A stretch of DNA of 64,000 bases from an uncultured Clostridia bacterium (GCA_944345705.1 CALVML010000006.1:2202-66201); one strand, 5' to 3'. Shown: positions 310-64,000, counted from the first letter of the stretch. Notes: generated from the sequence alone by a model not told the origin. Numbers and translations are program-made.

Positions 310-1465
310 AGATACTATTTGGATATATGCTCTTGTTCTAGTGCTTGTCGGCTTTGGCGCACTTATGGTCTATAGTGCAAGTTTTTATAGTGCCGAGTAT
401 CATTATGGCAACCGCTATTTTTTCCTTTACAAACAGATTATGGGTATAGTCCTTGGCATTTTTGCCATGGTATTTTTTACATTTTTCGACTATCATCTCT
501 TTAAAAAATATAAATGGTGGATTGTCCTTGCTTCTTTTATTCTGCTTGTGCTTGTCTTTGTACCAGGGCTTGGCATGGAAAGTTATGGTGCAAAGAGATG
601 GGTGTCAATTTTGGGGATAAGTTTGCAACCTTCAGAGATTGCAAAATTTGCACTGGTTATCTTTACGGCCTCATATATGTCCGCGAGTCACGATAAGGTC
701 AAGACTTTTAAAGGGCTTCTTCCTGTTCTGTGTGTGGGCGGAGCAATGTGCGTGCTTATCATGCTTGAGCCATCGATGAGCGTGACAATGTGCATTGCTT
801 TCGTCACTCTTTTTATGCTAATAATTGGTGGAATGAGCAAAAAACACACTCTTATGTTTTGCATTCCTGCCTCTTGTGCCGTTCCACTCCTAATTGTGCT
901 TGAGCCATATAGACTTAAAAGACTTTTGGCTTTCATCGATCCATGGGCATCTCCTCAGGGAGAAGGATTTCAACTTATTCAATCTCTCTATTCTCTAGGT
1001 GACGGCGGACTTTTCGGTGTCGGACTTTTTAATTCCAGACAAAAATATCTATTTCTTCCATTTGCCGAGTCAGATTTTATCCTTTCGATAATAGGTGAAG
1101 AAATAGGGTTTGTGGGTGTAACAATTCTTATTTTAATCTTTTTTATGCTGGTCTATAGATTGATTAAGATTGCGCTTGGTGCAAAAGATAGGCTTGGGGC
1201 ACTTCTTGCAAGCGGTGTTGCCTTTATCATTGGCGTACAGACAATGTTAAACATAGCAGTTGTTACAGGTTCAATTCCGCCTACTGGACTTCCGCTTCCT
1301 TTCATTTCTAGTGGTGGCACTTCGGTTTCAGTATTTATGGCGGGCGTTGGGATATGTCTTAACATACTTAGACAAAGTCAAGGACAAGATTACAAAGTAA
1401 TAAAGCCTTTTTCAAGCAAGCGATTAAAAAAGAGCTTAAAAAGCTCTGCAAAAAACAAAATTTAA
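278..1465 (+). CDS. ftsW: SEDS-family peptidoglycan glycosyltransferase (FtsW/SpoVE/RodA family)
   Basis: 395-aa polytopic membrane protein with ...GFGALMVYSAS near the N-terminus and PPTGLPLPFISSGGTS near the C-terminus, both typical of SEDS proteins. TTG start overlaps the murD end. Positional equivalent of spoVE after murD in B. subtilis. Confidence 0.85.
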   Translation: MEHLKKSKCLKDTIWIYALVLVLVGFGALMVYSASFYSAEYHYGNRYFFLYKQIMGIVLGIFAMVFFTFFDYHLFKKYKWWIVLASFILLVLVFVPGLGMESYGAKRWVSILGISLQPSEIAKFALVIFTASYMSASHDKVKTFKGLLPVLCVGGAMCVLIMLEPSMSVTMCIAFVTLFMLIIGGMSKKHTLMFCIPASCAVPLLIVLEPYRLKRLLAFIDPWASPQGEGFQLIQSLYSLGDGGLFGVGLFNSRQKYLFLPFAESDFILSIIGEEIGFVGVTILILIFFMLVYRLIKIALGAKDRLGALLASGVAFIIGVQTMLNIAVVTGSIPPTGLPLPFISSGGTSVSVFMAGVGICLNILRQSQGQDYKVIKPFSSKRLKKSLKSSAKNKI

Positions 1466-1590
1466 TCTGTTTGATTGACATTTTTAGAAAAGTATTGAAT
1501 AATAAAAATTACATGATTTTAAAATTTAAATCTCAAAAAGTTTAAATTTATTCGCAAAATAAACCATAAATTTATATAAAAAGGATAAAA

Positions 1591-2178
1591 ATGAAAGAAG
1601 TTGAAATCACTGTCAAAGTCAAAGATAGATTTGAAGATGCGATAAAGATAATAGAAAGTGAAGGATTTGTTAAAATAAGAGAAAGTCATATTAAAGATGT
1701 TTATCTATCGCAACATATAAAAGTGCTTAAAAATATAGAAAATGTGCTTAATAAAAGTGTACTTTTAAGATATCTTAAGACCGATGATAGAGAATATAAA
1801 AAAATCACATATAAGCATAAGGTATATGATAAGGATCAACTTATTGCAGAAGAAAAGATAAATTTAGCTTGTGAAGATTTAGACAAGGCTGAAAAACTTT
1901 TTAAAGCGCTTGGCTTTGAAAACTTAATAACAGTCGAATATGATTGTCCTGTATATGCTAAGGACGGTTTGGAACTCGCTTTTCAAAAGGTGAAAAATCT
2001 TGGGTTGTTGCTTGAAGTAGAAAGCAAATTAGATTTTACAAATGCAAATTATGATGACATTAAACAAGAAAAAGAGCGTCTTTTTAAGCAAATCTCACGA
2101 CTCGGTTTAGATATAGGACTGCAAAGAGATATTAAAAAGGCAAAAGAATTGATTAAAAGAAAATATAATCTTATCTGA
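1591..2178 (+). CDS. CYTH-domain protein (class IV adenylate cyclase / triphosphatase-like)
   Basis: 195 aa; N-terminal KEVEITVKVKD resembles the CYTH ExExK strand; size and alternating beta-strand pattern fit CyaB/CYTH proteins. Recognition is weak. Confidence 0.45.
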   Translation: MKEVEITVKVKDRFEDAIKIIESEGFVKIRESHIKDVYLSQHIKVLKNIENVLNKSVLLRYLKTDDREYKKITYKHKVYDKDQLIAEEKINLACEDLDKAEKLFKALGFENLITVEYDCPVYAKDGLELAFQKVKNLGLLLEVESKLDFTNANYDDIKQEKERLFKQISRLGLDIGLQRDIKKAKELIKRKYNLI

Positions 2179-2227
2179 TTTAAAATTACAACATATCATT
2201 TTTGCAAATTCATTCATATATTAATAT

Positions 2228-3505
2228 ATGGACGAATTTTTTATTGTTGGTGGAAACAAACTTTTTGGCAGTGTAAATATTGATGGCGCCAAAAATTCAC
2301 TCCTTCCTATACTTGCTGGCTGTATCTTAGTTGACGATGAAGTTTTATTAAAATCTGTGCCAAGGTATAGTGATGTACTTGCCATGATTGAGATTTTAAG
2401 ACATCTTGGCGCCAAAGTTGAGTGGCAGGGGCAAGATTTATACATAAATTGCAAAAATATTTCGGCTTGTGATGTACCCCATGAACTTGCTTGCAAAGTG
2501 CGTTCATCTATTTTTACGCTTGGTCCCATTACTGCAAGAACTGGAAAAGCAAAGGTGTCATATCCTGGTGGTTGCGATATAGGATTGCGTCCGATTGATT
2601 TGCATTTAGCCGGACTTAAGCAATTAGGTTGTAAGGTAATAGAAAAAAATGGATACATTTATGTAGATGGGCAGAAATTGCAGGCGCGAGATTATATGCT
2701 TCCCTTTGCAAGTGTCGGTGCGAGCGAAAATATCATGATGCTTGCCTCCTGTGCGAAGGGACAGACGCGCATTTTTAATCCTGCACGCGAGCCTGAGATT
2801 TGCGATCTTGAAAGATTTTTAAATGGGTGTGGAGCAAAAATTTCAGGTGCTGGCTCAAATGTCATTATGGTTGAAGGAGTAAAGAAACTTCACGGCTGTG
2901 AATTTTCTGTCATGCCTGATAGAATTGAGGCTGGCACATTTATGATTGCTTGTGCTATGTGCGAGGGTGAGGTCGAACTTAAAAATGCCATTGCAAAGGA
3001 CAATGAAAGTCTTATTGCAAAACTGCAAAAAACTGCTTGCAAAATCTATAGTGATCGTGATAGAATAGTGGTGAAAAGCAAAGGAAGGCCGATAGCCTTT
3101 GGAGAAATTGAAACTGAAGTCTATCCAGGCTTTCCGACAGATCTTCAAGCGCAGATGTGCGCCCTTGCCTCTATTTGCGATGGTTATAGTTTGATCATTG
3201 AAAATCTGTTTGAGTCACGATTTAAGCATATTGGCGAACTGCTCAAGATGGGTGCAGATATTAAGATGAAAAACGGGGTATGTGTCGTGCATGGCAAAGA
3301 GAAGATCTATGGTGCAGAAGTCACTAGTACCGACCTGCGTGGTGGGGCTGGACTTGTACTATGCGGGCTTGTTGCTGAAGGATACACAACTGTTCGAAAA
3401 GTCGACTTAATAGATAGGGGATATTTTAAACTTGAAGAAAAGTTGCGCGCTCTAGGCGGAGATATTAAAAGGATAAAGTGTGAAAAAAAAGTGGATAATT
3501 GCTAG
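2228..3505 (+). CDS. murA: UDP-N-acetylglucosamine 1-carboxyvinyltransferase MurA
   Basis: 425 aa; catalytic-loop motif KVSYPGGCDIGLRPIDLHL (active-site Cys) and EPSP-synthase-like fold repeats throughout. Confidence 0.95.
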   Translation: MDEFFIVGGNKLFGSVNIDGAKNSLLPILAGCILVDDEVLLKSVPRYSDVLAMIEILRHLGAKVEWQGQDLYINCKNISACDVPHELACKVRSSIFTLGPITARTGKAKVSYPGGCDIGLRPIDLHLAGLKQLGCKVIEKNGYIYVDGQKLQARDYMLPFASVGASENIMMLASCAKGQTRIFNPAREPEICDLERFLNGCGAKISGAGSNVIMVEGVKKLHGCEFSVMPDRIEAGTFMIACAMCEGEVELKNAIAKDNESLIAKLQKTACKIYSDRDRIVVKSKGRPIAFGEIETEVYPGFPTDLQAQMCALASICDGYSLIIENLFESRFKHIGELLKMGADIKMKNGVCVVHGKEKIYGAEVTSTDLRGGAGLVLCGLVAEGYTTVRKVDLIDRGYFKLEEKLRALGGDIKRIKCEKKVDNC

Positions 3506-4343
3506 CGGTATAGTGGTTTTTATAGTAGGGCTTTTAGTACTACTTGCCTTTACCTTATTTTCACTTAGGTCTATTAAAGTGGACTATAGGACAAGCACTT
3601 TGAATTTGACCGCCACCGAGCAAGAGATAATTGACAGTGCCGATTTTAAAATGAATACATCGGTTTTATTTCATGGCAAAAAGGGGTATATAAACAAAAT
3701 AGAGAGTGCTTTTCCTTATATTAAGGTAGTAAATATCGAAACAGTCTTTCCTTCTCGTTTTGTAATCCATGTTGCCGAGCGTGAAGAAATTTACGCGCTT
3801 GAAGGTGAGAGCGGTTATCTAATCTGTGATGACGAATTTAAGATTTTAAAGATTGAAAACTCATTTCAAAATGATGCCATCTTGCTAAATGGGGTGTCTT
3901 TTAAAGGGGTTGAGAAGGAAGGAGAATTTTTAGAGGTTGAAAACTTTCCTTTAGTATATTCATATCTATATGAAAATGGTATTCGCGCGCAGGATGCTGT
4001 AGCACTTATAGATAAAATCACTTATGGCACGAAATTTGACAGTGTACTCGGTGAAGAATTGCCATATTTTAGTCTGTCGATGGCAAACGGACAAACCTAC
4101 ACTATATTAAATTGTGAGTATGGCATTCAGAGTAAGACGCGTCTTTTTGTAGCGGTTTATGGTCAAATTTTTGACTACATTGGACAAATTATCACTCTCT
4201 ACGATGAAAACAATGAGGCATATCAAGTTACGCTAACCTATGATAATCTTAAAAATGCTGAAATTTTAATCAATAACTATTATGACTATAAGGCTCATGA
4301 TGAAAATGACTGTTATTTTTATATAATTCCTAGTGAAATATGA
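3480..4343 (+). CDS. FtsQ/DivIB-type cell division protein
   Basis: Single N-terminal TM helix (IASGIVVFIVGLLVLLAFTLF) followed by a POTRA-like region (IKVVNIETVFPSRFVIHVAERE). Sits directly upstream of ftsA-ftsZ. GTG start overlaps the murA end. Confidence 0.6.
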   Translation: MKKKWIIASGIVVFIVGLLVLLAFTLFSLRSIKVDYRTSTLNLTATEQEIIDSADFKMNTSVLFHGKKGYINKIESAFPYIKVVNIETVFPSRFVIHVAEREEIYALEGESGYLICDDEFKILKIENSFQNDAILLNGVSFKGVEKEGEFLEVENFPLVYSYLYENGIRAQDAVALIDKITYGTKFDSVLGEELPYFSLSMANGQTYTILNCEYGIQSKTRLFVAVYGQIFDYIGQIITLYDENNEAYQVTLTYDNLKNAEILINNYYDYKAHDENDCYFYIIPSEI

Positions 4344-5513: not shown

Positions 5514-5734
5514 TAAAGTGGCTACAAAAATCAATAAAAAGAAAAATTCGACAAAATTTTCACTCAATATATTGATTTTTTGTCTTATAGATGTTATACT
5601 ACAAATGCATAAATATTCATTTTTATTGCTTGAAATGTGAATTTATACATTTTTTCAAAAATTTTTATAAATTTGATTGCAAATTTATTCAAAACATATT
5701 ACAATATGTATGAAAAATATTCAAGGAGAACATT

Positions 5735-6931
5735 ATGGACGATTTTAAAAGAACTTCTATTGCAAAAATTAAGGTTATCGGTGTTGGCGGTGGCGGAAAC
5801 AACGCTGTCAATAGAATGATAGAAGCAGGCGTAAGCTCAGCTGAATTTGTTGCAGTAAACACTGATCAACAGACTTTGCTTGTAAGCAAGGCTGAAACAA
5901 GATTGCAGATTGGCGAGCGTTTGACTGGTGGTCTTGGCGCTGGTGCTAGACCAGAAGTTGGTCAAAAGGCTGCAGAAGAGAGTAAATCATCGATCACTGA
6001 AGTGCTAAAAGGTACAAACCTTGTATTTATCACTGCCGGCATGGGCGGTGGTACAGGTACAGGCGCCGCTCCAGTAATCGCACAGATTGCAAAGGAACTT
6101 GGAATTCTTACAATAGCAGTCATTACAAAGCCTTTCAATTTTGAAGGACAGCAGAGAGCAAAAAATGCTGAAGAAGGCGTTGAAAGACTTCGCAAATATG
6201 TAGATGCACTTGTTGTAATTCCAAATGAAAAATTGCTTGAAATCGTTCCTAAGAAAACTCCACTCAAAGAGTCATTTAGATTTGCTGATGATGTTTTAAG
6301 ACAGGGCGTTCAAGGGATTAGCGATCTTATTGTATATCCTGGACTTATCAATCTTGACTTTGCCGATGTTACAACTATTATGAAAGATAAGGGACTCGCT
6401 CACATGGGTATTGGTTATGGCAAGGGTGATAATAAAGCACTTGATGCGGTAAAACAGGCGGTTGCAAGTCCACTACTTGAAACTACAATCGAAGGCGCAA
6501 CAGGACTTTTGATCAATATCAAAGGTGGTAACGACCTTACTCAAGACGATTTAAGTGAAGCCGCTGCACTTGTAAGAGAAGTAGTTGACGACAGCTGTAA
6601 CATAATTCTCGGTACAAGCATTGATGAGAATATGCATGACGAAGTTGAAATCACTTTGATTGCTACAGGCTTCCAAAATGGTGAAGAAAAGAAGGATGAC
6701 GCGCGAAACAGCGAAATGGAAAACGCAAGATCTATAGGTAATATGGGACAAAGCCAGCCTTTCTCTGCAAGAAGCATGTTCTCAAATTATATGCAGAAGG
6801 AAAAGGAAGAGGAAAGTGCAAGACCTAATGTTCAGGTTAAAGAGTCTGACAACTTCTCATCTTCTAGAGTTGAAGTTAAATCATCTGATGTTCCACCATG
6901 GATTGAAAAGTTAAGAAGAAATAAGAAATAA
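5735..6931 (+). CDS. ftsZ: Cell division GTPase FtsZ
   Basis: [13 protein letters not shown] and the tubulin signature [15 protein letters not shown]; good RBS AAGGAGA. Confidence 0.98.
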
Positions 6932-6937
6932 GTAAAG

Positions 6938-6977
6938 ATATCAGGAAAATCTCTAAACTAGATTTCCTGATTTTTTT
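6938..6977 (+). terminator. Rho-independent terminator after ftsZ
   Basis: Hairpin ATCAGGAAA(A)TC...GATTTCCTGAT followed by a T7 run. Confidence 0.7.
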
Positions 6978-7065
6978 GTATTCATTTATAAAAAATATCT
7001 AAAAATCAAAATGTACATTGAAAAATCAAAGAGAATGTGCTAAACTATTGATAAGGAGAAATAAT

Positions 7066-7323
7066 ATGGGAATTTTGAAAACTACTTGTGATGTTGCATA
7101 TAAGATCTGCGATGGAATTTTCAGCGGACTTGGACTCGATAAGCCTATCAGTTTTTTAACTGACCTTTTTAAAACTTCTTTAACTTTTAAGGGTGGCATG
7201 TTTGATAAAAATAGAGGGAAAGGTGATGCTCTTGCAAGACAGTTGCATCGCGAAAGAATGGAAGCGGCAGCGGAAAGACAGGCTGCACTTGATGCAATGA
7301 GGCGCGATTTACAAGAACTTTAA
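7066..7323 (+). CDS. Hypothetical small protein (85 aa)
   Basis: ATG 7066 is preceded by AAGGAGA, whereas the track start at 7018 has no RBS. C-terminal Arg/Ala-rich helix (RQLHRERMEAAAERQAALDAMRRDL). No family recognised. Confidence 0.5.
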   Translation: MGILKTTCDVAYKICDGIFSGLGLDKPISFLTDLFKTSLTFKGGMFDKNRGKGDALARQLHRERMEAAAERQAALDAMRRDLQEL

Positions 7324-7641
7324 TAATAGTATCACAACTTATCATTCTTGAAAATTATAAAAACTTAATACATTTAGATTGTCTTTAAGTTGCTTTTTAG
7401 GCTATAAAGAATTATCGCTTAAAAAGAAATTAAACGACAATCTTTTTTTATCTTCAATTTTATAAATTTAAAAAGAAATTTAAAAAACTTATTCCCTATA
7501 AAAAGTAAATTTTGTGCAATTTTCGTCATGATTGTATAAAGCCAAAATTTTAAGGATATGTTACAATTTCTATGCAAGCGGAAGAGCGTTTCTAGGAAAA
7601 TATTTAGGTCTTTAGATTAAAATTTTTCAAAAGGAGCTGGC

Positions 7642-8439
7642 ATGGAAATCAATATAGAAATTTCATTTATAGTAAATTTTGCGCTTAATTTTTTTATATT
7701 GAAACTAGCGTCACTTTTCTTGCGAAAACAGCTTAAATTTGGCTTTATCTCGGCGTTTATCTCATCTATTATTGCACTTCTCTCGCCCTTAATAACGGCT
7801 GTTTATTTAAAAATCATCATAGCCCTTTTAACCTGTCTTTTCATGCTCTTTCTATCTTTTGAAAACAAGACTTTTAAGGAGTATTTAGTCTGTTTTCTTG
7901 TGATTGTCCTTGCAACATTTTTGTTCGGGGGCGGGTGTCTTGCGGTAGAGAGTTTTACAGGACAATTTCCGCTTTTTGTAGTTGCTATCATTGGTCTTAC
8001 TATCTATATAATTGCAAGTTCAATATGTCGATATCAAAAGCGAAAGAATATAATCGCAAACTTTACTCATTCGGTGGTCTTCAAAGATGGCGGACTTGAG
8101 TTAAAAGAAAAAGCCTTTTTAGATAGTGGCAATATGCTCTACGATAGTGTGACTAAAAAGCCGATAATACTTGTGACCTATGATGTGTTTTCACAGTTTT
8201 ATAAGGATATATCTTTCATAAAAGCATGGACTAAGCAGACTGAGGGTTTTGATATCAAGAATGGTCACTATATAAACATCAATGGTGTTGGCAAGGGTAG
8301 TCGCATGCTTGTTTTTATGATCGATGAAGTGATAGTAGATAAAGATAAGAAATTCAAAAATGTTATGCTGGGACTTTCTTTTGCAGGCTTTGATAAAAGT
8401 TTTGGCGCGAAGGTGCTTTTGCACAGTGAACTTGTTTAA
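7642..8439 (+). CDS. spoIIGA: Sigma-E processing peptidase SpoIIGA
   Basis: N-terminal multi-TM region plus a C-terminal aspartic-protease-like FLDSGNMLYD motif; immediately upstream of sigE as in all sporeformers. Confidence 0.85.
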   Translation: MEINIEISFIVNFALNFFILKLASLFLRKQLKFGFISAFISSIIALLSPLITAVYLKIIIALLTCLFMLFLSFENKTFKEYLVCFLVIVLATFLFGGGCLAVESFTGQFPLFVVAIIGLTIYIIASSICRYQKRKNIIANFTHSVVFKDGGLELKEKAFLDSGNMLYDSVTKKPIILVTYDVFSQFYKDISFIKAWTKQTEGFDIKNGHYININGVGKGSRMLVFMIDEVIVDKDKKFKNVMLGLSFAGFDKSFGAKVLLHSELV

Positions 8440-8450
8440 GGAGAGAATTT

Positions 8451-9182
8451 ATGAATAAATTGATTTTTAAGTTGCGACTATTTTTATTTAACCTTTTTCA
8501 CAGAAAAAATTTGCTTGATGTAAAGAATATTGTATGCTATGTCTGTGGCAATGAAGAATTTTTGCCACCACTTGACAGCGATGAAGAAAATAGGCTCTTG
8601 ATATTAAAGGATAATGGCGATTTAAGTGCAACCGAAAAACTTATAGAGCATAATTTGCGTCTTGTTGCATATATTGCAAAGAAGTTTGAAAACAGTGGTA
8701 TAGAGTCAGAAGATTTGATTTCAACTGGCGCAATAGGACTTATAAAAGCAGTCAAGACCTTCAAAGTGGACAAGAATATTAGGCTTGCCACTTATGCTTC
8801 ACGCTGTATTGAAAATGAAATCTTGATGCAGATAAGAAAGACGGTAAAGATTAAAAATGATGTAAGTCTTGACAAACCGCTTTGTGATGATGGAGAGGGC
8901 AACCAACTTGTTCTATCAGATATCATACCAGCAGAAGAAGATGTTGAAACACAAGCGGTAGATAACCCTGCTGAAAAACAACTAATTGGACAACTTATAA
9001 ATAAACTGAATGCTAGAGAGCGAGAGATCATGGTACTTAGATATGGGCTTCTTGGTCATGAAGAATTGACACAGCGAGAGGTGGCAGTAAAACTTGGAAT
9101 AAGTCAAAGCTATATATCTCGTCTTGAAAAGAGAATCTTGCATGATATGAGAATAGAATTGCAAAAGCAATTGACGGTTTAA
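8451..9182 (+). CDS. sigE: Sporulation sigma factor SigE (pro-sigma-E)
   Basis: Pro-sequence followed by LPPLDSDEE..., region 2 NLRLVAYIAKKFENSGIESEDLISTGAIGLIKAV, ATYASRCIENEILM, and region 4.2 TQREVAVKLGISQSYISRLEKRIL. Confidence 0.93.
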   Translation: MNKLIFKLRLFLFNLFHRKNLLDVKNIVCYVCGNEEFLPPLDSDEENRLLILKDNGDLSATEKLIEHNLRLVAYIAKKFENSGIESEDLISTGAIGLIKAVKTFKVDKNIRLATYASRCIENEILMQIRKTVKIKNDVSLDKPLCDDGEGNQLVLSDIIPAEEDVETQAVDNPAEKQLIGQLINKLNAREREIMVLRYGLLGHEELTQREVAVKLGISQSYISRLEKRILHDMRIELQKQLTV

Positions 9183-52864: not shown

Positions 52865-52980
52865 CGTTTAGGCAAATTCAAATGGTGATTTTAAAGAAGA
52901 ATTCTAAGTTGGTTTTCATTTGCATGAAGACTTTTCTTTATTAAAAAAGGCTAATACAAAGCTTTCAAAATATATATTTG

Positions 52981-53009
52981 GAATATCGAAAGGTTTGCCA
53001 GCATAAATT
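52981..53009 (+). promoter_or_regulatory. Candidate sigma-E-type promoter of spoIVA
   Basis: GAATATC (-35, consensus kmATATT), 14-nt spacer, CATAAATT (-10, consensus CATACAmT). spoIVA is sigma-E dependent in B. subtilis. Confidence 0.4.
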
Positions 53010-53034
53010 ATCTTGTCGCATAGGAGGCATAATT

Positions 53035-54510
53035 ATGGAAAAATTCCAAATTTATGATGATATTAAAACTCGTACTAATGGAGACATATATATCGGGGTT
53101 GTTGGTCCTGTCAGGGTTGGCAAATCAACATTTATTACGCAGTTTATGAAGAAATTAGTACTTCCTAATATCACTGAAAAGAATTCAAAAGAAAGAACTA
53201 TTGACGAACTTCCGCAAAGTGCCGATGGCAAGACTATCATGACAACTCAGCCACGCTTTGTGCCGAATGAAGCTGTTTCAATCCAAGTTTCTGGCGCAGA
53301 TATGCGTGTAAGAATGATTGACTGTGTTGGTTACCTTGTCAACGGTGTCATGGGACATATTGAAGATGACAAACCTAGGCTTGTCAAAACACCTTGGTCA
53401 GAAGAAGAACTTCCTTTTGAGCAGGCGGCAGAACTAGGCACAAACAAGGTCATCAATGAACATTCTACAATAGGCATCGTGCTTACAACTGATGGTTCAG
53501 TGACAGAAATTCCACGTTCAAACTATATAGAAGCAGAGGAGCGTGTAGTGCAGGAGATGAAATCATGCGGAAAACCATTTGTAATGGTGTTAAACTGCAA
53601 GTCGCCTTCGTCAAGTGAAGCCAAAAAACTGTCAAATTCACTTGCTGAGAAATATGGAGTGCCTGTAATTGCCTTGAACGCACTTGAGCTTAAAGATGAA
53701 GATGTTGATAAAATATTTGAGAAAATCTTGATGGAATTCCCTGTTTCATCAATTCAAATAAGAATGCCAAACTGGCTTTGCGCACTTGACTATAACAATG
53801 AAATAATCAGCGAAATTGCAACTGAAATGAGAAGAATTGGTGCAAATATGATCAAACTTAGTGACGCCGATAAAAATCATATTGCCTTTGAAGAAAGCGA
53901 AAATTTTGACCCTATTACCATCTCAGCTGTCAATGCAGGCAACGGTGTTGTCGAATTTGATGTCATTCCAAAGGCAGACCTATTCTATAAAGTACTTTCA
54001 AGTCAGTGCGGATACAATATCAAAGATGACTTTGCACTTATCAGCTATATCAAACAACTAGGCAAAGCCAAAGTTGAATATGACAAGGTTAAGGATGCAC
54101 TTGAGCAAGTTAAGCAGACAGGATATGGTATTGTTGAACCAAAACGTGATGACTTAGAACTTGGCGAACCTGAAATAATTAGACAGGGTGGAAGATATGG
54201 CGTTAAGATTAAGGCAACAGCTCCAAGTTTGCATATTATGAGAGTTGATGTTGAAACAGAAGTTACACCACTTGTTGGCACTGAAGACCAAAGCCAAGAC
54301 CTTGCTAAAAATATTGTAGAGCAGTTTGAACAAGATCCTGTTGCGCTTTGGGATACAAATATTCTAGGTAAGAGCCTATACTCGCTTGTTGGCGACAATA
54401 TAAATTCTAAGATAGTGACTATGCCAGTTGAGGCTCAACGCAAGATGAGAAAGACTCTCTCCAGAATTGTCAATGAAGGTAAGGGCGGAGTACTTTGCAT
54501 ACTGCTATAA
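53035..54510 (+). CDS. spoIVA: Stage IV sporulation protein A (SpoIVA, coat basement-layer ATPase)
   Basis: MEKFQIYDDIKTRTNGDIYIGVVGPVRVGKSTFI (Walker A) and full-length similarity to the SpoIVA pattern. ATG 53035 follows AGGAGG. Confidence 0.93.
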   Translation: MEKFQIYDDIKTRTNGDIYIGVVGPVRVGKSTFITQFMKKLVLPNITEKNSKERTIDELPQSADGKTIMTTQPRFVPNEAVSIQVSGADMRVRMIDCVGYLVNGVMGHIEDDKPRLVKTPWSEEELPFEQAAELGTNKVINEHSTIGIVLTTDGSVTEIPRSNYIEAEERVVQEMKSCGKPFVMVLNCKSPSSSEAKKLSNSLAEKYGVPVIALNALELKDEDVDKIFEKILMEFPVSSIQIRMPNWLCALDYNNEIISEIATEMRRIGANMIKLSDADKNHIAFEESENFDPITISAVNAGNGVVEFDVIPKADLFYKVLSSQCGYNIKDDFALISYIKQLGKAKVEYDKVKDALEQVKQTGYGIVEPKRDDLELGEPEIIRQGGRYGVKIKATAPSLHIMRVDVETEVTPLVGTEDQSQDLAKNIVEQFEQDPVALWDTNILGKSLYSLVGDNINSKIVTMPVEAQRKMRKTLSRIVNEGKGGVLCILL

Positions 54511-54667: not shown

Positions 54668-55555
54668 CTATTCTTTTTCTCTTTCCAATTTTGCAACTTT
54701 TTCTTGATACAGGGCTTGAAATTCAGGTTCGTTTCTTACGTTTTTGTCAACAAAACGCAAAGCTTTCTTTGGGTCCTGTGCCTTGTTAAAAACCATTACT
54801 ATAAAATCGTAATCAAGCTTATCCTCATAAGGAGTAAATTCAAAAAGATTATCTCCGCCTCTTTCATAAGCAAAGTCAAAAAAATCTGGATCATATCGCA
54901 AATCATCTGATGCAAATTGAAATACCCTAAAGTCCTTATCAATTGCAGCCTTCATTATTTCCTCGTCATTGCTATAATATCTGCCAAGTTGAGCAGATAT
55001 TGTTTCGTTCCAAAACTCAGGATTACGATGAGAAAAATCAGGACTTTCTTCAACAAGTTGCATATAATTTGGATCTTTTAATATCTTCAATAAATCTTCT
55101 CTATCTACTTGTGGTTCTGTCCAGGCATTCAGCATGGCATCTCTGTATGAATGTCTACTGCAAATACCACAACCACGTTTAGCATTTATAAATTTAGAAA
55201 AATCTGGATCTTTTTGTAATTCATCTGATGCATATTGAAGCATTGTAGGGTCTTTCTTAACTGCAACCAGCATGATATTCTTGTTATTTTTTATATTATC
55301 TGATGCATATTTAACTATTGTAGGGTCTTTACAGGCTGCAGCCTGCATTACTTCCTTGTCATCGTTATAATATTTGAAAAGTTGAACAGATATTCTTTCA
55401 TTCCAAAACTCAGCATTCCTATGTGAAAGATCAGGACTTTCTTCAACGAGTTGCGTATAATTTGGATTTTGTAATATTTGTAATAATCTTTCTCTTTCCA
55501 TTTTTGGTTGTGTTAATGCCGTCATCATAGCATTTCTATATGTCAGTTTGCTCAT
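54668..55555 (-). CDS. DUF4116 repeat protein with internal duplication
   Basis: Repeats of the type ...KDPTIVKYASDNIKNNKNIMLVAVKKDPTMLQYASDELQKDPDF... The two halves of the protein are clearly homologous. Confidence 0.65.
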   Translation of the reverse strand: MSKLTYRNAMMTALTQPKMERERLLQILQNPNYTQLVEESPDLSHRNAEFWNERISVQLFKYYNDDKEVMQAAACKDPTIVKYASDNIKNNKNIMLVAVKKDPTMLQYASDELQKDPDFSKFINAKRGCGICSRHSYRDAMLNAWTEPQVDREDLLKILKDPNYMQLVEESPDFSHRNPEFWNETISAQLGRYYSNDEEIMKAAIDKDFRVFQFASDDLRYDPDFFDFAYERGGDNLFEFTPYEDKLDYDFIVMVFNKAQDPKKALRFVDKNVRNEPEFQALYQEKVAKLEREKE

Positions 55556-58121: not shown

Positions 58122-60086
58122 ATGGACGAGAAAGAAAACAATATCAAACTTATGCAAGAACTTATCAGCGAGATTGATAAGCACAACTATAATTATTATG
58201 TTTTAGACAATCCTACCATATCGGACAGCGAGTATGATAAACTTTACTACAGCCTTGTCGATCTTGAAAAAGAAACAGGTATTATTTTGCCAAACTCTCC
58301 AACTCAAAGGGTTGGCGGAGATGTGCTTGATAAGTTTGAAAAGAAAAGACATGTTGTGCCACTCTATTCGCTAAGCAAGGTACGTGATTTTGATGACCTT
58401 ACTAAGTGGGTGCGTGATATGCTTAAATTAAGTCCGCACACAAAGTTTGCTCTTGAATATAAATTTGATGGACTTCAAGTAGTCATTGAATATGATAATG
58501 GCAATTTTGTGAGTGCGACTACTCGCGGAAATGGTACGATAGGCGAAGATGTTTCCTTGCAAGTTAAGACTATCAAATCAGTGCCACTTTCAATTGACTA
58601 CAAAGGCAGGTTGATTGTGCAAGGCGAATGCATGATGACAAACAAAAACTTTGAGATATATAATAGGACAGCCGAAGAAAAACTGAAAAATCCTAGAAAT
58701 GCGGCAGCGGGCGCTGTAAGAAATTTAGATCCAAAGCAGACTGCAAAACGCAACCTTGACTATTTCTGCTACAGCATATTGTATTGTCCTGAAAGGCATT
58801 TTGATACGCAGGAAGAAATGCATGAATTTTTACAGCAAAATGGCTTTCAAACAGGGGACTATTTTAAAATATGCAATGATGAAAATGAACTTATTGCAGA
58901 AATTGAAAAGGTTGATAAGATAAAATCTGGACTTGATGTAATGATAGACGGAATGGTCATCAAAATAAATGATACAAAATATAGAGATGAAATCGGCTTT
59001 ACAGCAAAATTTCCTAGATGGGCAATGGCATACAAATTTGCAGCGACTGAAGCGACAACTCGCTTAAAAAGTGTTACATGGCAGGTTGGTCGAAGTGGCA
59101 GAGTGACTCCTATTGCAAATTTAGAGCCTGTCGAGCTTGCTGGTGCTACCATCAAACGTGCAACGCTTAACAATATAGACGATATACGCAAAAAAGATAT
59201 TTATGAAAACGCCATGGTCTTTATGAGAAGAAGCAATGAAGTTATTCCAGAAATCATGGGGCTTGCATCGAAAGACGAGAACTCGAGAAAAATTGAAATT
59301 CCCTCTCACTGTCCTTCTTGTAACAGCCTTTTGGTGCAAAAAGGACCACTCCTTTTTTGCGAAAATCACTATGGCTGTCGCGAGCAAATTATAGATAGAC
59401 TTTCTCACTTTTGCAGTAGAAATGCATTCAATATTGAAGGCGTTTCTGAAAAATCGATAGAGGCGTTTTATGAAAAATTAGAGGTTACTAAAGCAAGCGA
59501 TCTATTCTTGCTCAAAGAAGAAGATCTATTAAAACTTGAAGGTTTTAAAGAAAAAAAGGCAAAAAATATGATAAATTCAATAGAAAACAGCAAAATTATT
59601 GAATTAAATCGCTTTTTGTTTGCTCTCGGCATCATTGAAGTTGGCAGTAAAACTGCTCGTGATATTGCAAGTCATTTTAAAACACTTGCTGATATTAAGA
59701 ATGCAAGTTTAGAAAGTCTTGCCGAGATCGAAGATGTCGGGAATATAATTGCTCAAAACATATTTGATTTCTTCCGCGATCAAGAAAATCTGCAGGAAAT
59801 AGATAGACTATTTAAATTAGGTGTCAAAATAAAAGAAGTCCAAACTGATCAAAAGAGCGATATTTTAAAGGGAAAGACTATAGTAATAACAGGCACATTA
59901 TCAAGACCAAGGGCAGACTTTGAGAGAATGATTGAAGCTCATGGCGGAAAATCAAGCAGTAGTGTATCGGCAAAGACTGATTTCCTATTGCTCGGCGAAA
60001 ATGCAGGCTCAAAACTTGAAAAGGCAAAATCTCTAGGAATTAAAATTCTATCTGAACAAGACTTCTTAAAACTTATTAATGAATAG
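58122..60086 (+). CDS. ligA: NAD-dependent DNA ligase LigA
   Basis: Adenylation motif EYKFDGLQV, Cys4 zinc finger CPSCNSLLVQKGPLLFCENHYGC, HhH repeats and a C-terminal BRCT domain. Confidence 0.97.
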   Translation: MDEKENNIKLMQELISEIDKHNYNYYVLDNPTISDSEYDKLYYSLVDLEKETGIILPNSPTQRVGGDVLDKFEKKRHVVPLYSLSKVRDFDDLTKWVRDMLKLSPHTKFALEYKFDGLQVVIEYDNGNFVSATTRGNGTIGEDVSLQVKTIKSVPLSIDYKGRLIVQGECMMTNKNFEIYNRTAEEKLKNPRNAAAGAVRNLDPKQTAKRNLDYFCYSILYCPERHFDTQEEMHEFLQQNGFQTGDYFKICNDENELIAEIEKVDKIKSGLDVMIDGMVIKINDTKYRDEIGFTAKFPRWAMAYKFAATEATTRLKSVTWQVGRSGRVTPIANLEPVELAGATIKRATLNNIDDIRKKDIYENAMVFMRRSNEVIPEIMGLASKDENSRKIEIPSHCPSCNSLLVQKGPLLFCENHYGCREQIIDRLSHFCSRNAFNIEGVSEKSIEAFYEKLEVTKASDLFLLKEEDLLKLEGFKEKKAKNMINSIENSKIIELNRFLFALGIIEVGSKTARDIASHFKTLADIKNASLESLAEIEDVGNIIAQNIFDFFRDQENLQEIDRLFKLGVKIKEVQTDQKSDILKGKTIVITGTLSRPRADFERMIEAHGGKSSSSVSAKTDFLLLGENAGSKLEKAKSLGIKILSEQDFLKLINE

Positions 60087-60140: not shown

Positions 60141-60174
60141 GGCTTGCCTTGTGGCAAGCCCTTTCAATTTTTTT
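60141..60174 (+). terminator. Rho-independent terminator after ligA
   Basis: GGCTTGCC-TTGT-GGCAAGCC followed by CTTTCAATTTTTTT. Confidence 0.8.
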
Positions 60175-60255: not shown

Positions 60256-60284
60256 TTGACTATTTTTGTAAAAAATGTTACAAT
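60256..60284 (+). promoter_or_regulatory. Promoter of the RiPP operon
   Basis: TTGACT (60256-60261), 17-nt spacer, extended -10 TGTTACAAT (60276-60284). Confidence 0.65.
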
Positions 60285-60332
60285 ATAATTGATAATTTAT
60301 GTAAATTAAATTATCTAGAAGGAGGAGGGAAA

Positions 60333-60437
60333 ATGAAAAAGGCAAAAAAAATCACTAGAATTAAAATCGACAATTTAATTGATAATAGTCGTTTTGCAAA
60401 AGGTGATGGTTGGTCTAAAACAGACAATGCTTATTGA
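60333..60437 (+). CDS. RiPP precursor peptide, streptide-like KxxxW family (34 aa)
   Basis: MKKAKKITRIKIDNLIDNSRFAKGDGWSKTDNAY. RBS GGAGGAGG lies 5 nt upstream. The stop overlaps the radical-SAM start. AKGDGW equals the streptide core motif. Below the ORF-track size cutoff. Confidence 0.75.
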   Translation: MKKAKKITRIKIDNLIDNSRFAKGDGWSKTDNAY

Positions 60438-61770
60438 TTTATATCAATTAAGAGAAGGCATCATAGTGCGCCTTGAATATTTTGGTGGAATGATAATAGA
60501 CATAGTTAATAATGCCTATTATCAAATACCAAAATATGACGCATTAGTTTTATTTTGCTTAAAATATGAAAATAATATCAATGTAATTATCAATGAAATA
60601 TTAACCAAATTAGACATAAAAAAAGAAACATTTGATTGCAATTTATATGAAAAAGAAAATTTCATAGTCAAAATAAGTCAAAAAAATAATATTCATCGTG
60701 ATAATTTAAACTTATATTTATATATTAAAGATATTTTAAATAACATTGAAAATATAAATCACTTATCAGCGCCTTTAAATATATCCATTTATCCTTCTTT
60801 TTCCTGTCAAGCAAATTGCAATTTTTGTTATGTTAAAAATTATTGCAAAGACGATCATAGAATCATGCAGTTTCATGTTTTAAAAAAACTTATAGACGAT
60901 ATTGAAAGATTACAAATACCTTATGTTTCAATTTTGGGTGGTGAACCACTTTTACTGCCATATATAGAAGAGTTATTAGATTATATGTCAAAGAAACGCA
61001 TTATTTTCAATATAACAACGAATGGTTGGTTGTTAAATGAAAAAGTTATGTATTATATAAAAAAATTTAAAAATATTAATTTGTCAATTTCTTTACAAAG
61101 TATTGATAATTATCATACATTAGCAACAAAACTTAATTATAAAGAGATAATAAACAATATAAAAAATACTAGAGGCAATTGCAGAATTAATACTGTATAC
61201 ATAAATCAAACTTTCGAACAATTAGAAAAACTTGTTGATTTTGTTTATAACGAGGGAATAAAAACCTTTACATTGGCACTATATAATAATGTTAAATTGA
61301 ATCCAAAAGAACAAAATAATAATCACATAAAATTTTTAAACGCAAAACAGCATTTAAATAAATACATTAAAAGTAAACACTACGATATTGACTTTCGTGC
61401 AGAAGGCTGTTTACAGTATTTATTTGAGCAAAAAGTCAAAATAATTCCAAAAACGGATATAGAAAAAATTTTTACAAAGTGTGAGGCAGGTAATTTAAAA
61501 CTTGAAATTATGCCTAACGGAGATACAATCGGTTGCATGGCACTAGATAATAATTTTTTTAAAAGTGGAAATATTTTTGATAACAAATTAGAGGATATAT
61601 GGAATCATGATGAGAAGTTAAATTTATTAAGAAACTCACTATGTAAAGTAAGCGAGTGTAAAAACTGTAAATATTATTCTTTCTGCAATGGTGGATGTAC
61701 TGCGCAAAGATTTTTAACGAATAAGAATTTTGAAAAAGTAAAGGATGGAAGATGTTTAAAGAAAGCATAA
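60427..61770 (+). CDS. Radical SAM/SPASM peptide maturase (KxxxW cyclic-peptide type)
   Basis: CxxxCxxC cluster SCQANCNFCY, ILGGEPLL, and a C-terminal SPASM motif CKNCKYYSFCNGGC plus upstream CEAG..GC. ATG 60427 is chosen because the track start at 60379 lies inside the precursor ORF in another frame. Confidence 0.85.
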   Translation: MLIDLYQLREGIIVRLEYFGGMIIDIVNNAYYQIPKYDALVLFCLKYENNINVIINEILTKLDIKKETFDCNLYEKENFIVKISQKNNIHRDNLNLYLYIKDILNNIENINHLSAPLNISIYPSFSCQANCNFCYVKNYCKDDHRIMQFHVLKKLIDDIERLQIPYVSILGGEPLLLPYIEELLDYMSKKRIIFNITTNGWLLNEKVMYYIKKFKNINLSISLQSIDNYHTLATKLNYKEIINNIKNTRGNCRINTVYINQTFEQLEKLVDFVYNEGIKTFTLALYNNVKLNPKEQNNNHIKFLNAKQHLNKYIKSKHYDIDFRAEGCLQYLFEQKVKIIPKTDIEKIFTKCEAGNLKLEIMPNGDTIGCMALDNNFFKSGNIFDNKLEDIWNHDEKLNLLRNSLCKVSECKNCKYYSFCNGGCTAQRFLTNKNFEKVKDGRCLKKA

Positions 61771-63449
61771 ATTTTGAAGAATATAAAAAATTCAAAGCAA
61801 AATTTGAGTGTTTTGTTTTAGATGAGCAGTGGAGATATTCTCTAATGTTTGATTGTTTTTTAAGTGACAAAGTGAGAAATGAGACAACTAGAATGATAGA
61901 TTTTTTTACTGCTAATCCAAGGCCTAGTGATGTTTCAAAATATTTAAATTATTTAAGAAAAGAAGGTTTAAATCTTTTATATGAAAGTCAAAAACAAAAA
62001 GATGTAAGGCATTCTTGGGCAGAAGTGAGAGAATCTTATGCGTATTATGGATTAATTGAAGTTATAACAGAGGGCTCTAGTTATAGTGAAAATTTAATAG
62101 GCGAATTACAAGAAATTTATGGCGATAAGTATTTAACTGTGTTATCGGAAATCGACAATTCATCTCCATCAAAACTTACCAATTTCTCACAAAATAGTAA
62201 TGTAAATTTGTTTGATAATAATGATACGGTAAATAAATATTTGCTATTAAAAAAATGGCAAGACGAGCAAAATATATATCATAATAAAAAATTATATCCT
62301 ATTTTTTCAAAGTATAGAGATGAATTTAAAAAAGAATATGTAGCACGATATGGTGAAGTTGAATGTAGTGCTAGAGAGATGCTAGTATTGTCAGATTTGA
62401 GAGAACAATCAATTTTGCCTATTGACACATTAGCAATTTGGATAGATATTGGACTCGGAAATGAGTTAACAACAGTTATAGGTGGAAAAAATTATGGACT
62501 TGCACTATTAAAACAACACGAGCTTAATATTCCTAATACTTGGACTTTAACTTTAAATTCAAACTTAGATGAAAATTTTATACAAAATTTACCTTCAAAA
62601 TTTAATTATGCAATTCGTAGTTCTGCAAACGGCGAAGATGGTCAAAAAAATTCATTTGCTGGAATGTTTGATACAATTTTAGATGTTAATAAAAGTGATA
62701 TTTTAAATGCTGTCAATAAGGTTAAATATTCTTGCCAAAATTCTCGTGTTGCAGCATATATACAAAAATTTAATCTTCAACAACCAGAAATGTCCATTGT
62801 AATTCAAGAATTTATTCCTGCAGATATTTCAGGGGTATGGCTTGGCAGGGAAGAAAATTCTGGTATACTCGAGTGGGTAAATGGCAGCGGAGATCAGCTA
62901 GTATCTGGCACAATAACGCCAACAACTGAAATGATAAATTATAAAGCTGATATAAATAGTTTAAAGATAAACGGAAAGTATGTTGGAGATATTTTATTAT
63001 CATATCAAAAGAAAGTGGGCAAAATTTGTGATTTTGAATTTTGTATCAAAGATGATATATTGTACATGTTACAATATCGCCCTGTAACAGAAATTATTAC
63101 ACAACAAAGTGAAAATGATAATAGTAAAGTCAACGGAACGCCTGCATCAAAGGGAGTTGTCGAAGGTGAAGTTTGCTTTTTAGAAGATGTAGATGATATT
63201 GATAAATTTAAACCAAATACCATCCTGTTGACATATTATACCGATCCTGACTGGACAGAGGCTTTAGTGAGAGCAAAAGCAATAGTGACAGCAGAGGGCG
63301 GATTTCTATGTCATACAGCTATTATTGCAAGGGAACTAGGTATTCCTTGCATTACAGGAATAGGAAAGAAAAATTTAAAAAAATTAGCGAAATGCAAACA
63401 AATTGTGGTTAACGGAAATACTGGTGGCATAAAAGAATTGCATAATTAA
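61752..63449 (+). CDS. PEP-utilising-enzyme family protein (PPDK_N ATP-grasp + C-terminal mobile His domain), putative peptide-modifying phosphotransferase
   Basis: VIGGKNYGLALL...IPNTW...AIRSSANGEDGQKNSFAGMFDT...SIVIQEFIPADISGVW...GSGDQLVSGTITP (PEP/pyruvate-binding ATP-grasp). GTPASKGVVEGEV...ILLTYYTDPDWTEALVRAKAIVTAEGGFLCHTAIIARELGIPCITG (swivelling His domain). Start overlaps the rSAM gene by 19 nt. Confidence 0.8.
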   Translation: MFKESINFEEYKKFKAKFECFVLDEQWRYSLMFDCFLSDKVRNETTRMIDFFTANPRPSDVSKYLNYLRKEGLNLLYESQKQKDVRHSWAEVRESYAYYGLIEVITEGSSYSENLIGELQEIYGDKYLTVLSEIDNSSPSKLTNFSQNSNVNLFDNNDTVNKYLLLKKWQDEQNIYHNKKLYPIFSKYRDEFKKEYVARYGEVECSAREMLVLSDLREQSILPIDTLAIWIDIGLGNELTTVIGGKNYGLALLKQHELNIPNTWTLTLNSNLDENFIQNLPSKFNYAIRSSANGEDGQKNSFAGMFDTILDVNKSDILNAVNKVKYSCQNSRVAAYIQKFNLQQPEMSIVIQEFIPADISGVWLGREENSGILEWVNGSGDQLVSGTITPTTEMINYKADINSLKINGKYVGDILLSYQKKVGKICDFEFCIKDDILYMLQYRPVTEIITQQSENDNSKVNGTPASKGVVEGEVCFLEDVDDIDKFKPNTILLTYYTDPDWTEALVRAKAIVTAEGGFLCHTAIIARELGIPCITGIGKKNLKKLAKCKQIVVNGNTGGIKELHN

Positions 63450-63472
63450 TAAAATAAGAATAGAATATAGAT

Positions 63473-63540
63473 AGGTAGCAAGTTAACATTTATTTTGACA
63501 GCACTTTTTAACCGATGCTACCTTTTTTTTGCTAATCAAT
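63473..63540 (+). terminator. Terminator of the RiPP operon
   Basis: AGGTAGCA...TGCTACCT followed by a T8 run. Confidence 0.6.
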
Positions 63541-63585: not shown

Positions 63586-63615
63586 TTGACAATTCGCTGT
63601 TGTTGGTTTAAAATA
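63586..63615 (+). promoter_or_regulatory. Promoter of the downstream membrane protein gene
   Basis: TTGACA (63586-63591), 18-nt spacer, TAAAAT (63610-63615). Confidence 0.5.
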
Positions 63616-63643: not shown

Positions 63644-64000
63644 TGCAGGACAAGAAAATTATGTTTGATTTTGAAAAGTTTGATCCAAAAACACAAAAAC
63701 TACTTAATCATTTTAAAGAAAAAGTTTCTTCTTTAGGAAACTATGAACTTTATTCTTTGTATAAAAAAACAACAAACAAGGTCTACAAGCTTGCTCAAAA
63801 TTTGCACTCACAATCTTTTAAGCAAAATGTCGGGTTTACTTTTTTCTTGACTTGTCCTGTTTCTATGGGGTTATCACTTGGTTTGCTTCCTGAAGGCACA
63901 ATTAAAAATGTCGTCTTTGGTTTGACTACGGTTGCCTATCTTGTGACTGGTTGTCTTACAGCATATCAATATAATAAATGCGAAAAAGCAAAAGAGAAAT
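63644..64000 (+). CDS. Hypothetical membrane protein, N-terminal fragment (runs off the window)
   Basis: ATG 63644 follows AAGGAG. The frame is open to the window end (119 codons). Two hydrophobic segments (VGFTFFLTCPVSMGLSLGLL, VVFGLTTVAYLVTGCL). Not in the ORF track because no stop is present. Confidence 0.5.

Follow-up and report, generated by a model that had tools for sequence, protein, structure and literature searches.

A 64,000-nt stretch of one DNA strand from an uncultured Clostridia bacterium (the window; coordinates are counted from its start) was found to carry, at 60256-63540, a three-gene operon composed of a precursor peptide gene, a radical S-adenosylmethionine (SAM)/SPASM gene and a dikinase-type phosphotransferase gene, with consecutive overlaps of 11 nt and 19 nt. 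A preliminary description had proposed a streptide-like KxxxW operon for a peptide that is made on the ribosome and modified after translation (RiPP), and the proposal was upheld: the precursor matched TIGR04079, and the radical-SAM protein was matched best by TIGR04080 and SuiB over its full length. The locus is regarded with high confidence as a genuine KxxxW-type RiPP operon. The best explanation of the whole, to which we give even credence, is a self-contained three-gene operon of the streptide kind in which the dikinase tailors the peptide. The streptide-like peptide and its maturase are already known; the conserved dikinase partner and the loss of the regulator and exporter are new.

The precursor gene (60333-60437, + strand, 34 codons), preceded by the ribosome-binding site GGAGGAGG (60321-60328, +), was recognised from its open reading frame (ORF), its TIGR04079 match and its conservation. 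It is translated to MKKAKKITRIKIDNLIDNSRFAKGDGWSKTDNAY (34 amino acids, aa), which comprises a Lys-rich leader, an SRF-AKGDGW core with the KxxxW spacing near the C-terminus (FAKGDGWS) and a variable 7-residue tail. As had been stated, AKGDGW is identical to the first six residues of streptide (AKGDGWKVM), which is cyclised between its first Lys and Trp (PMC7564271). TIGR04079 (KxxxW-cyclized peptide pheromone) was the sole NCBIfam match of the precursor (25.2 bits, E = 1.3e-5). A small ORF with its own GGAGG-type ribosome-binding site was kept upstream of every homologous radical-SAM gene fetched, in all lineages examined, and nine synonymous and four nonsynonymous codon differences separated the precursor from the closest different sequence (locus L095; related loci are given L numbers), which points to purifying selection. 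With its strong ribosome-binding site, its TIGR04079 match and its conservation beside homologous radical-SAM genes, the 34-codon ORF may be accepted as the real gene it had been taken for. Read-through of its TGA stop under genetic code 4 was considered and rejected: code 11 leaves the long housekeeping ORFs unbroken, and the stop is therefore genuine.

The radical-SAM/SPASM gene (60427-61770, +, 447 aa) starts at an ATG that overlaps the final 11 nt of the precursor ORF, and was identified by Pfam (Radical_SAM, 73.7 bits; SPASM, 36 bits), TIGR04080 and SuiB matches. Hidden Markov model searches with the KxxxW families, proposed earlier as a check, returned TIGR04079 and TIGR04080 as the best families, though both under their cutoffs. 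TIGR04080 ranked first of 57 NCBIfam families (155.3 bits), aligning residues 6-443 to positions 2-438 of a 440-position profile, and the runner-up, mycofactocin maturase (101 bits), scored about 55 bits less. Relatives scored 148-298 bits with TIGR04080, in a gradient toward the streptococcal enzymes. The best sequence in the Protein Data Bank (PDB) was SuiB (5v1q; E = 6.2e-40, 140 bits, residues 8-443 to 24-457), in an alignment that takes in the N-terminal peptide-binding region, and the next was CteB (E = 4e-13, 52 bits). The N-terminus corresponds to a RiPP recognition element (RRE)-like region. The radical-SAM cluster motif CxxxCxxC (CQANCNFC) and eight further Cys of the SPASM region (C328, C352, C370, C411, C414, C420, C424 and C443), candidate ligands of two auxiliary clusters, were invariant in 21 aligned sequences. 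By sequence, the protein is kin to the streptide family but diverged, and is no annotated member of it; like StrB and SuiB, it probably makes the Lys-Trp crosslink. Gene callers start the gene instead at another in-frame ATG, at 60406 (454 aa). This ATG is created out of frame by GAT GGT, the codons for Asp-Gly of KGDGW (60402-60412), so that the core codons and a possible maturase start, alternative to 60427, are the same bases; the same core-codon ATG is the called start in L001 and L003 (6001 in both).

The third gene (61752-63449, +) encodes a 565-aa protein in which Pfam recognised PPDK_N (PF01326; 105.5 bits against a cutoff of 27) and PEP-utilizers (PF00391; 76.3 bits), and no third domain. 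An all-helical N-terminal domain (residues ~1-225) is followed by an ATP-grasp domain (PPDK_N, ~221-450) and a phospho-His swivel domain (460-565) with the catalytic His in GGFLCH521TAIIAR, where the protein ends, without the C-terminal TIM barrel that binds phosphoenolpyruvate (PEP) or pyruvate. The earlier designation 'PEP-utilising' is thus a family name and does not describe this protein, which has only the ATP-grasp and swivel domains; because the barrel is missing, ATP and not PEP is the expected phosphoryl donor, with His521 as the expected phosphoryl carrier. In an alignment of 30 sequences H521 was invariant within GGFLCHTAIIAR, and so were the motifs RSSAxxED, QxRPVT and GGxLxH, so that the protein looks catalytically competent. 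An AlphaFold2 model built from the 30 sequences (predicted local distance difference test score, pLDDT, 88.5; predicted template-modelling score, pTM, 0.86) was matched by Foldseek to pyruvate phosphate dikinase (PPDK; 1kbl, E = 2.5e-16) and rifampin phosphotransferase (RPH; 5hv3, E = 3e-14). In the PDB, PEP synthase and the Listeria rifampin phosphotransferase were matched by sequence in their ATP-grasp and swivel domains only. All NCBIfam matches (PEP synthase, rifamycin phosphotransferase and PigC/RedH) fell far under their cutoffs; the best PEP-synthase model gave 161 bits against 598, and NF041857 (RPH) gave 113.6 bits against 999, with the terminal domains alone aligning in 5fbs. The N-terminal domain, modelled alone with a pLDDT of 89.5, had no counterpart in the PDB by sequence profile (best E = 0.31) or by Foldseek (best E = 0.5). 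It was found by phmmer in merely 62 of 1.84 billion representative protein clusters, nearly always as the N-terminal part of proteins 545-640 aa long, and is the evident candidate for a substrate-binding module.

Co-occurrence of the radical-SAM and dikinase genes, which the preliminary description had named as a check, was found to persist down to 31-38% radical-SAM identity. Contigs with a radical-SAM protein of 63%, 47% or 38% identity carried the precursor, radical-SAM, dikinase and M16 peptidase genes, and loci at 31-34% identity had the three-gene form of the window. Over all fetched loci the dikinase family comprised 48 distinct members, 17 of them directly after a KxxxW-type radical-SAM gene. 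The overlap between the two genes was exactly 19 nt in 16 of these 17 distinct cases, a constancy explained by the dikinase ATG, which falls within the conserved codons for Arg-Cys at the SPASM C-terminus. Another 16 members lay within 5 kb of other radical-SAM/SPASM genes (33/48 near any such gene), and one locus was too short to judge. An unbiased genome scan, seeded on the dikinase, placed a radical-SAM gene nearby in about 55% of loci. The third gene is a conserved partner and no accident of adjacency, and the pairing defines a distinct subclass, as had been suggested. A chance neighbour, namely a fragment of a housekeeping PEP synthase or PPDK, would agree with the best NCBIfam names, which read 'phosphoenolpyruvate synthase', but the scores lie far below the cutoff, the PEP/pyruvate barrel is lacking, the adjacency and overlap are kept at radical-SAM identities from 31% to 100%, and the dedicated N-terminal domain is confined to so few representative clusters. 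We consider this explanation hardly credible; a housekeeping PEP synthase is effectively refuted by the architecture together with the conserved coupling.

Thirteen distinct precursor variants were found beside the radical-SAM and dikinase pair in uncultured gut Bacilli and Clostridia, and in 13/13 of these dikinase-type loci no dedicated exporter or regulator was present. A scan seeded on the radical-SAM protein recovered from metagenomes KxxxW relatives of classical layout (L106-L109; precursors ...DAHFAKGDGWRKTINIK, ...SARFAKGDGWKKTE, ...KSRFAKGDGWADGGAT and ...SARFAKGDGWKSKDFI), in which the precursor and radical-SAM genes are followed by an ABC exporter (L106 and L107) or, instead, by an MFS transporter (L108 and L109); upstream regulators, where checked, were a helix-turn-helix (HTH)/TPR protein in L106 and Rgg_C in L108. 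Set beside these, the window represents a distinct variant without regulator and exporter, and the dikinase-type KxxxW locus is a distinct, recurrent variant of the streptide system. All its occurrences came from metagenome-assembled genomes, those of uncultured gut Bacilli, 'Tenericutes' and Clostridia. Viral contigs (IMG/VR) yielded generic PPDK-like matches only, without the N-terminal domain, and the dikinase family is therefore not regarded as phage-borne.

The statement that no peptidase accompanies the operon holds for the window species, in which no window ORF matched M16, but not for many relatives, where an M16 gene (HxxEH) is the fourth gene (after the dikinase in L001, L003, L004, L006 and L095). 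Some relatives add a small His/Cys protein upstream of the precursor (~180-208 aa; L003 5392-5940, L006 4061-4570 and L015 5103-5507), without Pfam or NCBIfam match, in which a His (…IIICAHG…) and a Cys (…VICLGCW…) each stand behind a hydrophobic strand, an arrangement that recalls clan-CD (caspase-like) peptidases; the protein may be a leader peptidase. In L006 its ORF continues in frame into the precursor. NCBIfam holds no model for this protein, for the dikinase family, for the group-B radical-SAM proteins or for the M16 partners.

The M16 genes bear on a reading modelled on cofactors such as pyrroloquinoline quinone (PQQ) and mycofactocin, in which the peptide would serve as a scaffold, the crosslinked unit being excised (by M16 where present) and phosphorylated by the dikinase to give a small molecule that acts inside the cell and is no secreted signal. 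A short peptide, a radical-SAM/SPASM C-C crosslink and an M16 peptidase make up the PqqA/PqqE/PqqF pattern, and the M16 genes behind the dikinase conform to it, as does the lack of an exporter or quorum-sensing regulator in dikinase-type loci, whereas the transporter-type KxxxW relatives have both. However, a peptidase is missing from the window and from L008-type loci, neither an oxidoreductase nor another downstream enzyme is found, and the dikinase also joins unrelated precursors (EMTQCRI and Cys-rich), which argues for a generic peptide-directed role. A cofactor product is judged quite improbable.

For the dikinase as a peptide-tailoring enzyme, which on the sequence evidence we hold to be an evenly balanced call, the candidate target was sought among conserved precursor residues. 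K and W of KxxxW were invariant in 17/17 distinct precursors (13 from dikinase-type and four from transporter-type loci), and [S/C][R/H/F/Y]FxKGxxW was kept by 13/13 dikinase-type precursors, with endings such as ...NSRFSKGDGWPKTDNV (L001), ...NSRFSKGDGWKKGIKSNKNEK (L003), ...CSRFGKGKQWKK (L004), ...SSCHFSKGDGW (L008), ...DCHFKKGDGWKVKKSKKSKK (L015) and ...SCFFSKGDGWK (L020). The residue four before the Lys was Ser or Cys in all 13 dikinase-type precursors, as against A, A, S and A in the transporter-type precursors, and, the Lys and Trp of the crosslink aside, it is the only conserved nucleophile. The tail that follows the Trp varied (SKTDNAY in the window; PKTDNV, KKGIKSNKNEK and KSIPKEKRK elsewhere), was just K, N or KK, with no hydroxyl residue, in L016, L020, L100, L101, L103 and L004, and was absent in L008, L014 and L099, where the precursor stops at the Trp. 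Ser, Thr or Tyr of the tail WSKTDNAY, which had been put forward as the site of phosphorylation, is for this reason an unlikely target. The Asp of KGDGW was likewise considered as a conserved target and rejected, being replaced in L004 (KGKQW).

The following scheme is proposed. The 34-aa precursor would be bound, by homology, by the StrB/SuiB-like radical-SAM enzyme, and a Lys-Trp C-C crosslink between K23 and W27, expected in the streptide family to run from Lys C-beta to Trp C7, would be formed in AKGDGW. The translationally coupled third protein would then act at the expense of ATP, its ATP-grasp domain loading a phosphoryl group onto His521 and its His domain passing the group to the peptide, held by the family-specific N-terminal helical domain. 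The foremost candidate targets are the Ser or Cys at position -4 from the Lys of the crosslink (S19 here) and a group of the macrocycle; what results could be either a phospho-peptide or an intermediate activated for elimination or cyclisation. That Ser and Cys interchange would be compatible with phosphorylation and then elimination, giving dehydroalanine, or with a neighbouring carbonyl being activated by phosphate for azoline-type cyclisation. In many relatives the product would be trimmed for release by the M16 (HxxEH) peptidase; in the window species a dedicated peptidase, regulator or exporter is not encoded close by, and any release or export would therefore depend on host functions.

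The dikinase was also found in other peptide clusters. A second precursor family has the conserved core ELKPEMTQCRI[V/I]QVD and stands upstream of two tandem radical-SAM/SPASM genes; the core holds Cys-Arg-hydrophobic, like SRF and CHF in the KxxxW precursors. Peptides with ...ELKPEMTQCRI[V/I]QVDKK... were observed in L022 (4447-4593), L026, L027, L028, L031, L032, L038, L039, L047 and L052, with the dikinase adjacent or within 4 kb; no curated NCBIfam family fits the tandem radical-SAM/SPASM genes behind them, and L022 additionally has a B12-type radical-SAM methyltransferase-like gene and an aminotransferase. These loci look like an undescribed RiPP class. In L011 (6001-11568) and L012 the dikinase forms, by C-terminal fusion to a NUDIX domain, a protein of 749 aa, and the next genes in L011 encode a Cys-rich 44-aa peptide (…ACNNLDACGCTGNGNC), a CefB-like radical-SAM protein, a PP2C phosphatase and an APH-type kinase. 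A YcaO gene adjoins the dikinase in L019 and, by sequence resemblance only, in L029. In L061 (6508-10980) the dikinase is unfused, and behind it come APH, a NUDIX-like ORF of its own and a ThiF-family protein; in L033 the dikinase has as neighbours an S41 peptidase and a HAD hydrolase. That enzymes able to remove phosphate keep turning up beside the dikinase lends support to the view that a phospho-intermediate or phospho-product is made. A wider proposal, in which the N-domain proteins (~570 aa) form a new RiPP-modifying class, the first His-swivel dikinases to act on ribosomal peptides, that serves at least three unrelated precursor families (KxxxW, ELKPEMTQCRI and Cys-rich), perhaps acts on a shared [Ser/Cys]-[Arg/His]-hydrophobic target and gives, in the KxxxW clusters devoid of exporter and regulator, a phosphorylated or phosphate-activated Lys-Trp macrocycle, whose function may be intracellular or cofactor-like and not one in quorum sensing, is put forward tentatively and would more probably fail than hold in this full form.

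Further observations were made on dikinase-bearing loci. Among clusters of different sequence the nearest, in L095 (3384-15567; 73% dikinase identity), has mobile-element-like flanks (a LexA/S24 repressor, a sigma-70 region 4 protein, DUF3846, a Toprim primase and a DNA methylase), which suggests that the cluster is able to travel on an integrative element, although IMG/VR yielded no family member. L015 contains two dikinase paralogues (982-4020 and 5556-8716), of which the additional copy lies ~3 kb upstream of the KxxxW cluster with a short radical-SAM-like ORF of its own, and in L004 a partial second dikinase copy in reverse orientation follows the M16 gene (6471-7511, -). In L018 ('Candidatus Aphodocola excrementigallinarum'; 6902-8725) a stand-alone family member lies directly upstream of ligA, the gene behind which the window operon stands; the two positions may reflect coincidence or a recurrent insertion site.

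As to control signals and surroundings, the promoter, ribosome-binding site, small ORF, radical-SAM gene, third gene and hairpin with T8 that had been listed for the operon were all found again at the same coordinates. Directly upstream lies the ligA ORF (58122-60086, +; its Pfam assignment was obtained in L093, which like L094 is of the same species as the window and shares its synteny), closed by an intrinsic-terminator-like hairpin, GGCTTGCC-TTGT-GGCAAGCC, with a T-rich tail (60141-60170, hairpin 60141-60160, +). Its stem of 8 bp with six GC pairs marks the 5′ boundary of the operon. A sigma-70-type promoter-like site (60256-60284, +) was detected by a consensus scan as TTGACT, a 17-nt spacer and a TG-extended TACAAT, with 10/12 consensus positions matched and the TG present; it is a candidate site, not statistically exceptional, whose function is plausible from its sequence. 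Downstream of the third gene, a hairpin (63473-63523, +) with an 8-bp stem (AGGUAGCA / UGCUACCU) and a long, partly structured loop, of modest stability (-15.2 kcal/mol, z = -1.9), is followed by T8 (63523-63530), read as U8; it was missed by the consensus scan because of the long loop, and may plausibly act as terminator. A separate promoter-like site (TTGACA, 17-nt spacer, TAAAAT; 63586-63614) precedes the next gene, and the region 63644-64000, continued in L093 (10141-11304), encodes two proteins of 179 and 188 aa without Pfam match, each with a hydrophobic, probably membrane-spanning segment, which are not conserved beside other clusters.

Neither an HTH protein, Rgg nor a transporter gene was present among the operon neighbours, which are ligA upstream and the 179- and 188-aa proteins downstream; the preliminary description was thus right that no Rgg/SHP regulator or exporter stands beside the operon. 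It was also right that the host is a sporeformer: SpoIVA (52978-54510) scored 649 bits against a cutoff of 460, and a SpoVE/FtsW protein is encoded at 278-1465. Rfam and tRNA scans of the window gave no matches. Between spoIVA and pcrA, a 295-aa protein of two near-identical halves is encoded at 54668-55555 (-), and its L093 counterpart is annotated DUF4116.

Several observations weigh against the explanation by a coupled tailoring enzyme. Neither family score reached its cutoff (25.2 bits against a curated cutoff of 35 for TIGR04079; 155.3 bits against an equivalog cutoff of 500 for TIGR04080), and since both are below, a different crosslink is possible. The correlation with Ser or Cys at position -4 rests on merely two or three independent lineages and is therefore suggestive only. 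Promoter-like matches numbered 32, against 26 ± 5.6 in shuffled sequence, and are not enriched in this AT-rich DNA, and the z value of the 3′ hairpin does not make the terminator call statistically exceptional. The window holds no phosphatase, lyase or exporter that would point to the fate of a phospho-peptide. Furthermore, 14/48 dikinase members have no radical-SAM gene or recognisable precursor within ~7 kb, and about 40% of the loci in the dikinase-seeded scan carry the dikinase alone. Such stand-alone members fit a role in immunity, or another role apart from the cluster, as well as they fit tailoring.

By an immunity role is meant that the third protein phosphorylates the finished or incoming crosslinked peptide, as RPH does its antibiotic, or makes a phospho-prodrug, for self-protection or inactivation. 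Among the nearest two-domain relatives to have been characterised is rifampin phosphotransferase, which inactivates an antibiotic, about one third of the family stands alone in the manner of orphan immunity genes, and the PP2C, HAD and NUDIX hydrolases of other clusters could strip the phosphate later. Yet the 19-nt coupling to the maturase, often with M16 as well, is more typical of a biosynthetic complex, and the absence of an exporter from all 13 dikinase-type loci leaves no evident secreted toxin. Toxicity is not known for streptide itself. Self-immunity is considered unlikely, and tailoring of the peptide by the dikinase is retained as the preferred explanation.

Until now, work on streptide-type peptides has dealt with exported streptococcal products under quorum-sensing control. 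Here, in gut sporeformers and in uncultured Bacilli, the same core and maturase are re-wired into a compact operon that lacks regulator and exporter and is permanently coupled to a dikinase-type enzyme. If the dikinase modifies the peptide, it would represent a new class of RiPP enzyme whose chemistry is swivel-His phosphoryl transfer, for phosphorylation or activation. The literature on dikinase or PEP-utilising enzymes with RiPP, radical SAM or SPASM did not yield this pairing, though subscription journals may hold a description, and the WprB paper and the RaS-RiPP review, the most relevant on the expansion of the StrB family, do not mention a dikinase partner. The N-terminal domain would in that case also offer a handle for genome mining, one that already points to uncharacterised radical-SAM, YcaO and ThiF peptide clusters of the gut. 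The system is small, with three genes and a 34-aa substrate.

In comparison with known systems, the window is nearest to streptide (StrA/StrB/StrC, with SuiB and AgaB), whose precursor gene likewise stands directly upstream of a ~440-aa SPASM maturase; the window maturase is colinear with TIGR04080 and SuiB, and an N-terminal RRE-like region is common to both. In S. thermophilus rgg1358 precedes strA (30 aa), strB (439 aa) and the transporter gene strC (363 aa) (PMC7564271). In the window, by contrast, no Rgg/SHP is adjacent, the dikinase-type gene replaces the StrC-type transporter, the leader is Lys-rich, unlike the streptococcal one, and the host belongs to the sporeformers and uncultured gut Bacilli or Clostridia. 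The third protein shares the ATP-grasp and phospho-His swivel domains with RPH (5fbs, 5hv1), PEP synthase, PPDK, phenylphosphate synthase and PigC/RedH; the motifs RSSAxxED, QxRPVT and GGxxxH are common to these His-swivel dikinases, with an expected route from ATP through His-phosphate to an acceptor oxygen. RPH has a rifampin-binding domain between its ATP-grasp and His domains, which is absent from the window protein, whose extra domain is N-terminal and unrelated, and PEP synthase and PPDK have the PEP/pyruvate barrel, whereas the window protein has none and consists of just 565 aa with a 225-aa helical N-terminal domain. We know of no His-swivel dikinase with a ribosomal peptide as acceptor, as is presumed here, and of no kinase-assisted RiPP tailoring enzyme that uses an ATP-grasp and swivel-His dikinase mechanism. 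The PQQ (PqqA/E/F) and subtilosin (SboA/AlbA/AlbE-F) systems combine a short peptide, a SPASM crosslinker and an M16-type zinc peptidase, as do the relatives of the window, but different residues are crosslinked, no dikinase takes part, and the window itself is without M16. The kinases of LanL/LanKC, class V LxmK and phosphorylated lasso peptides, which have protein-kinase, APH or HPr-kinase folds unlike the ATP-grasp and swivel-His domains of the window protein, phosphorylate precursor side chains in an ATP-dependent manner, as a final or an eliminative step, as is proposed here.

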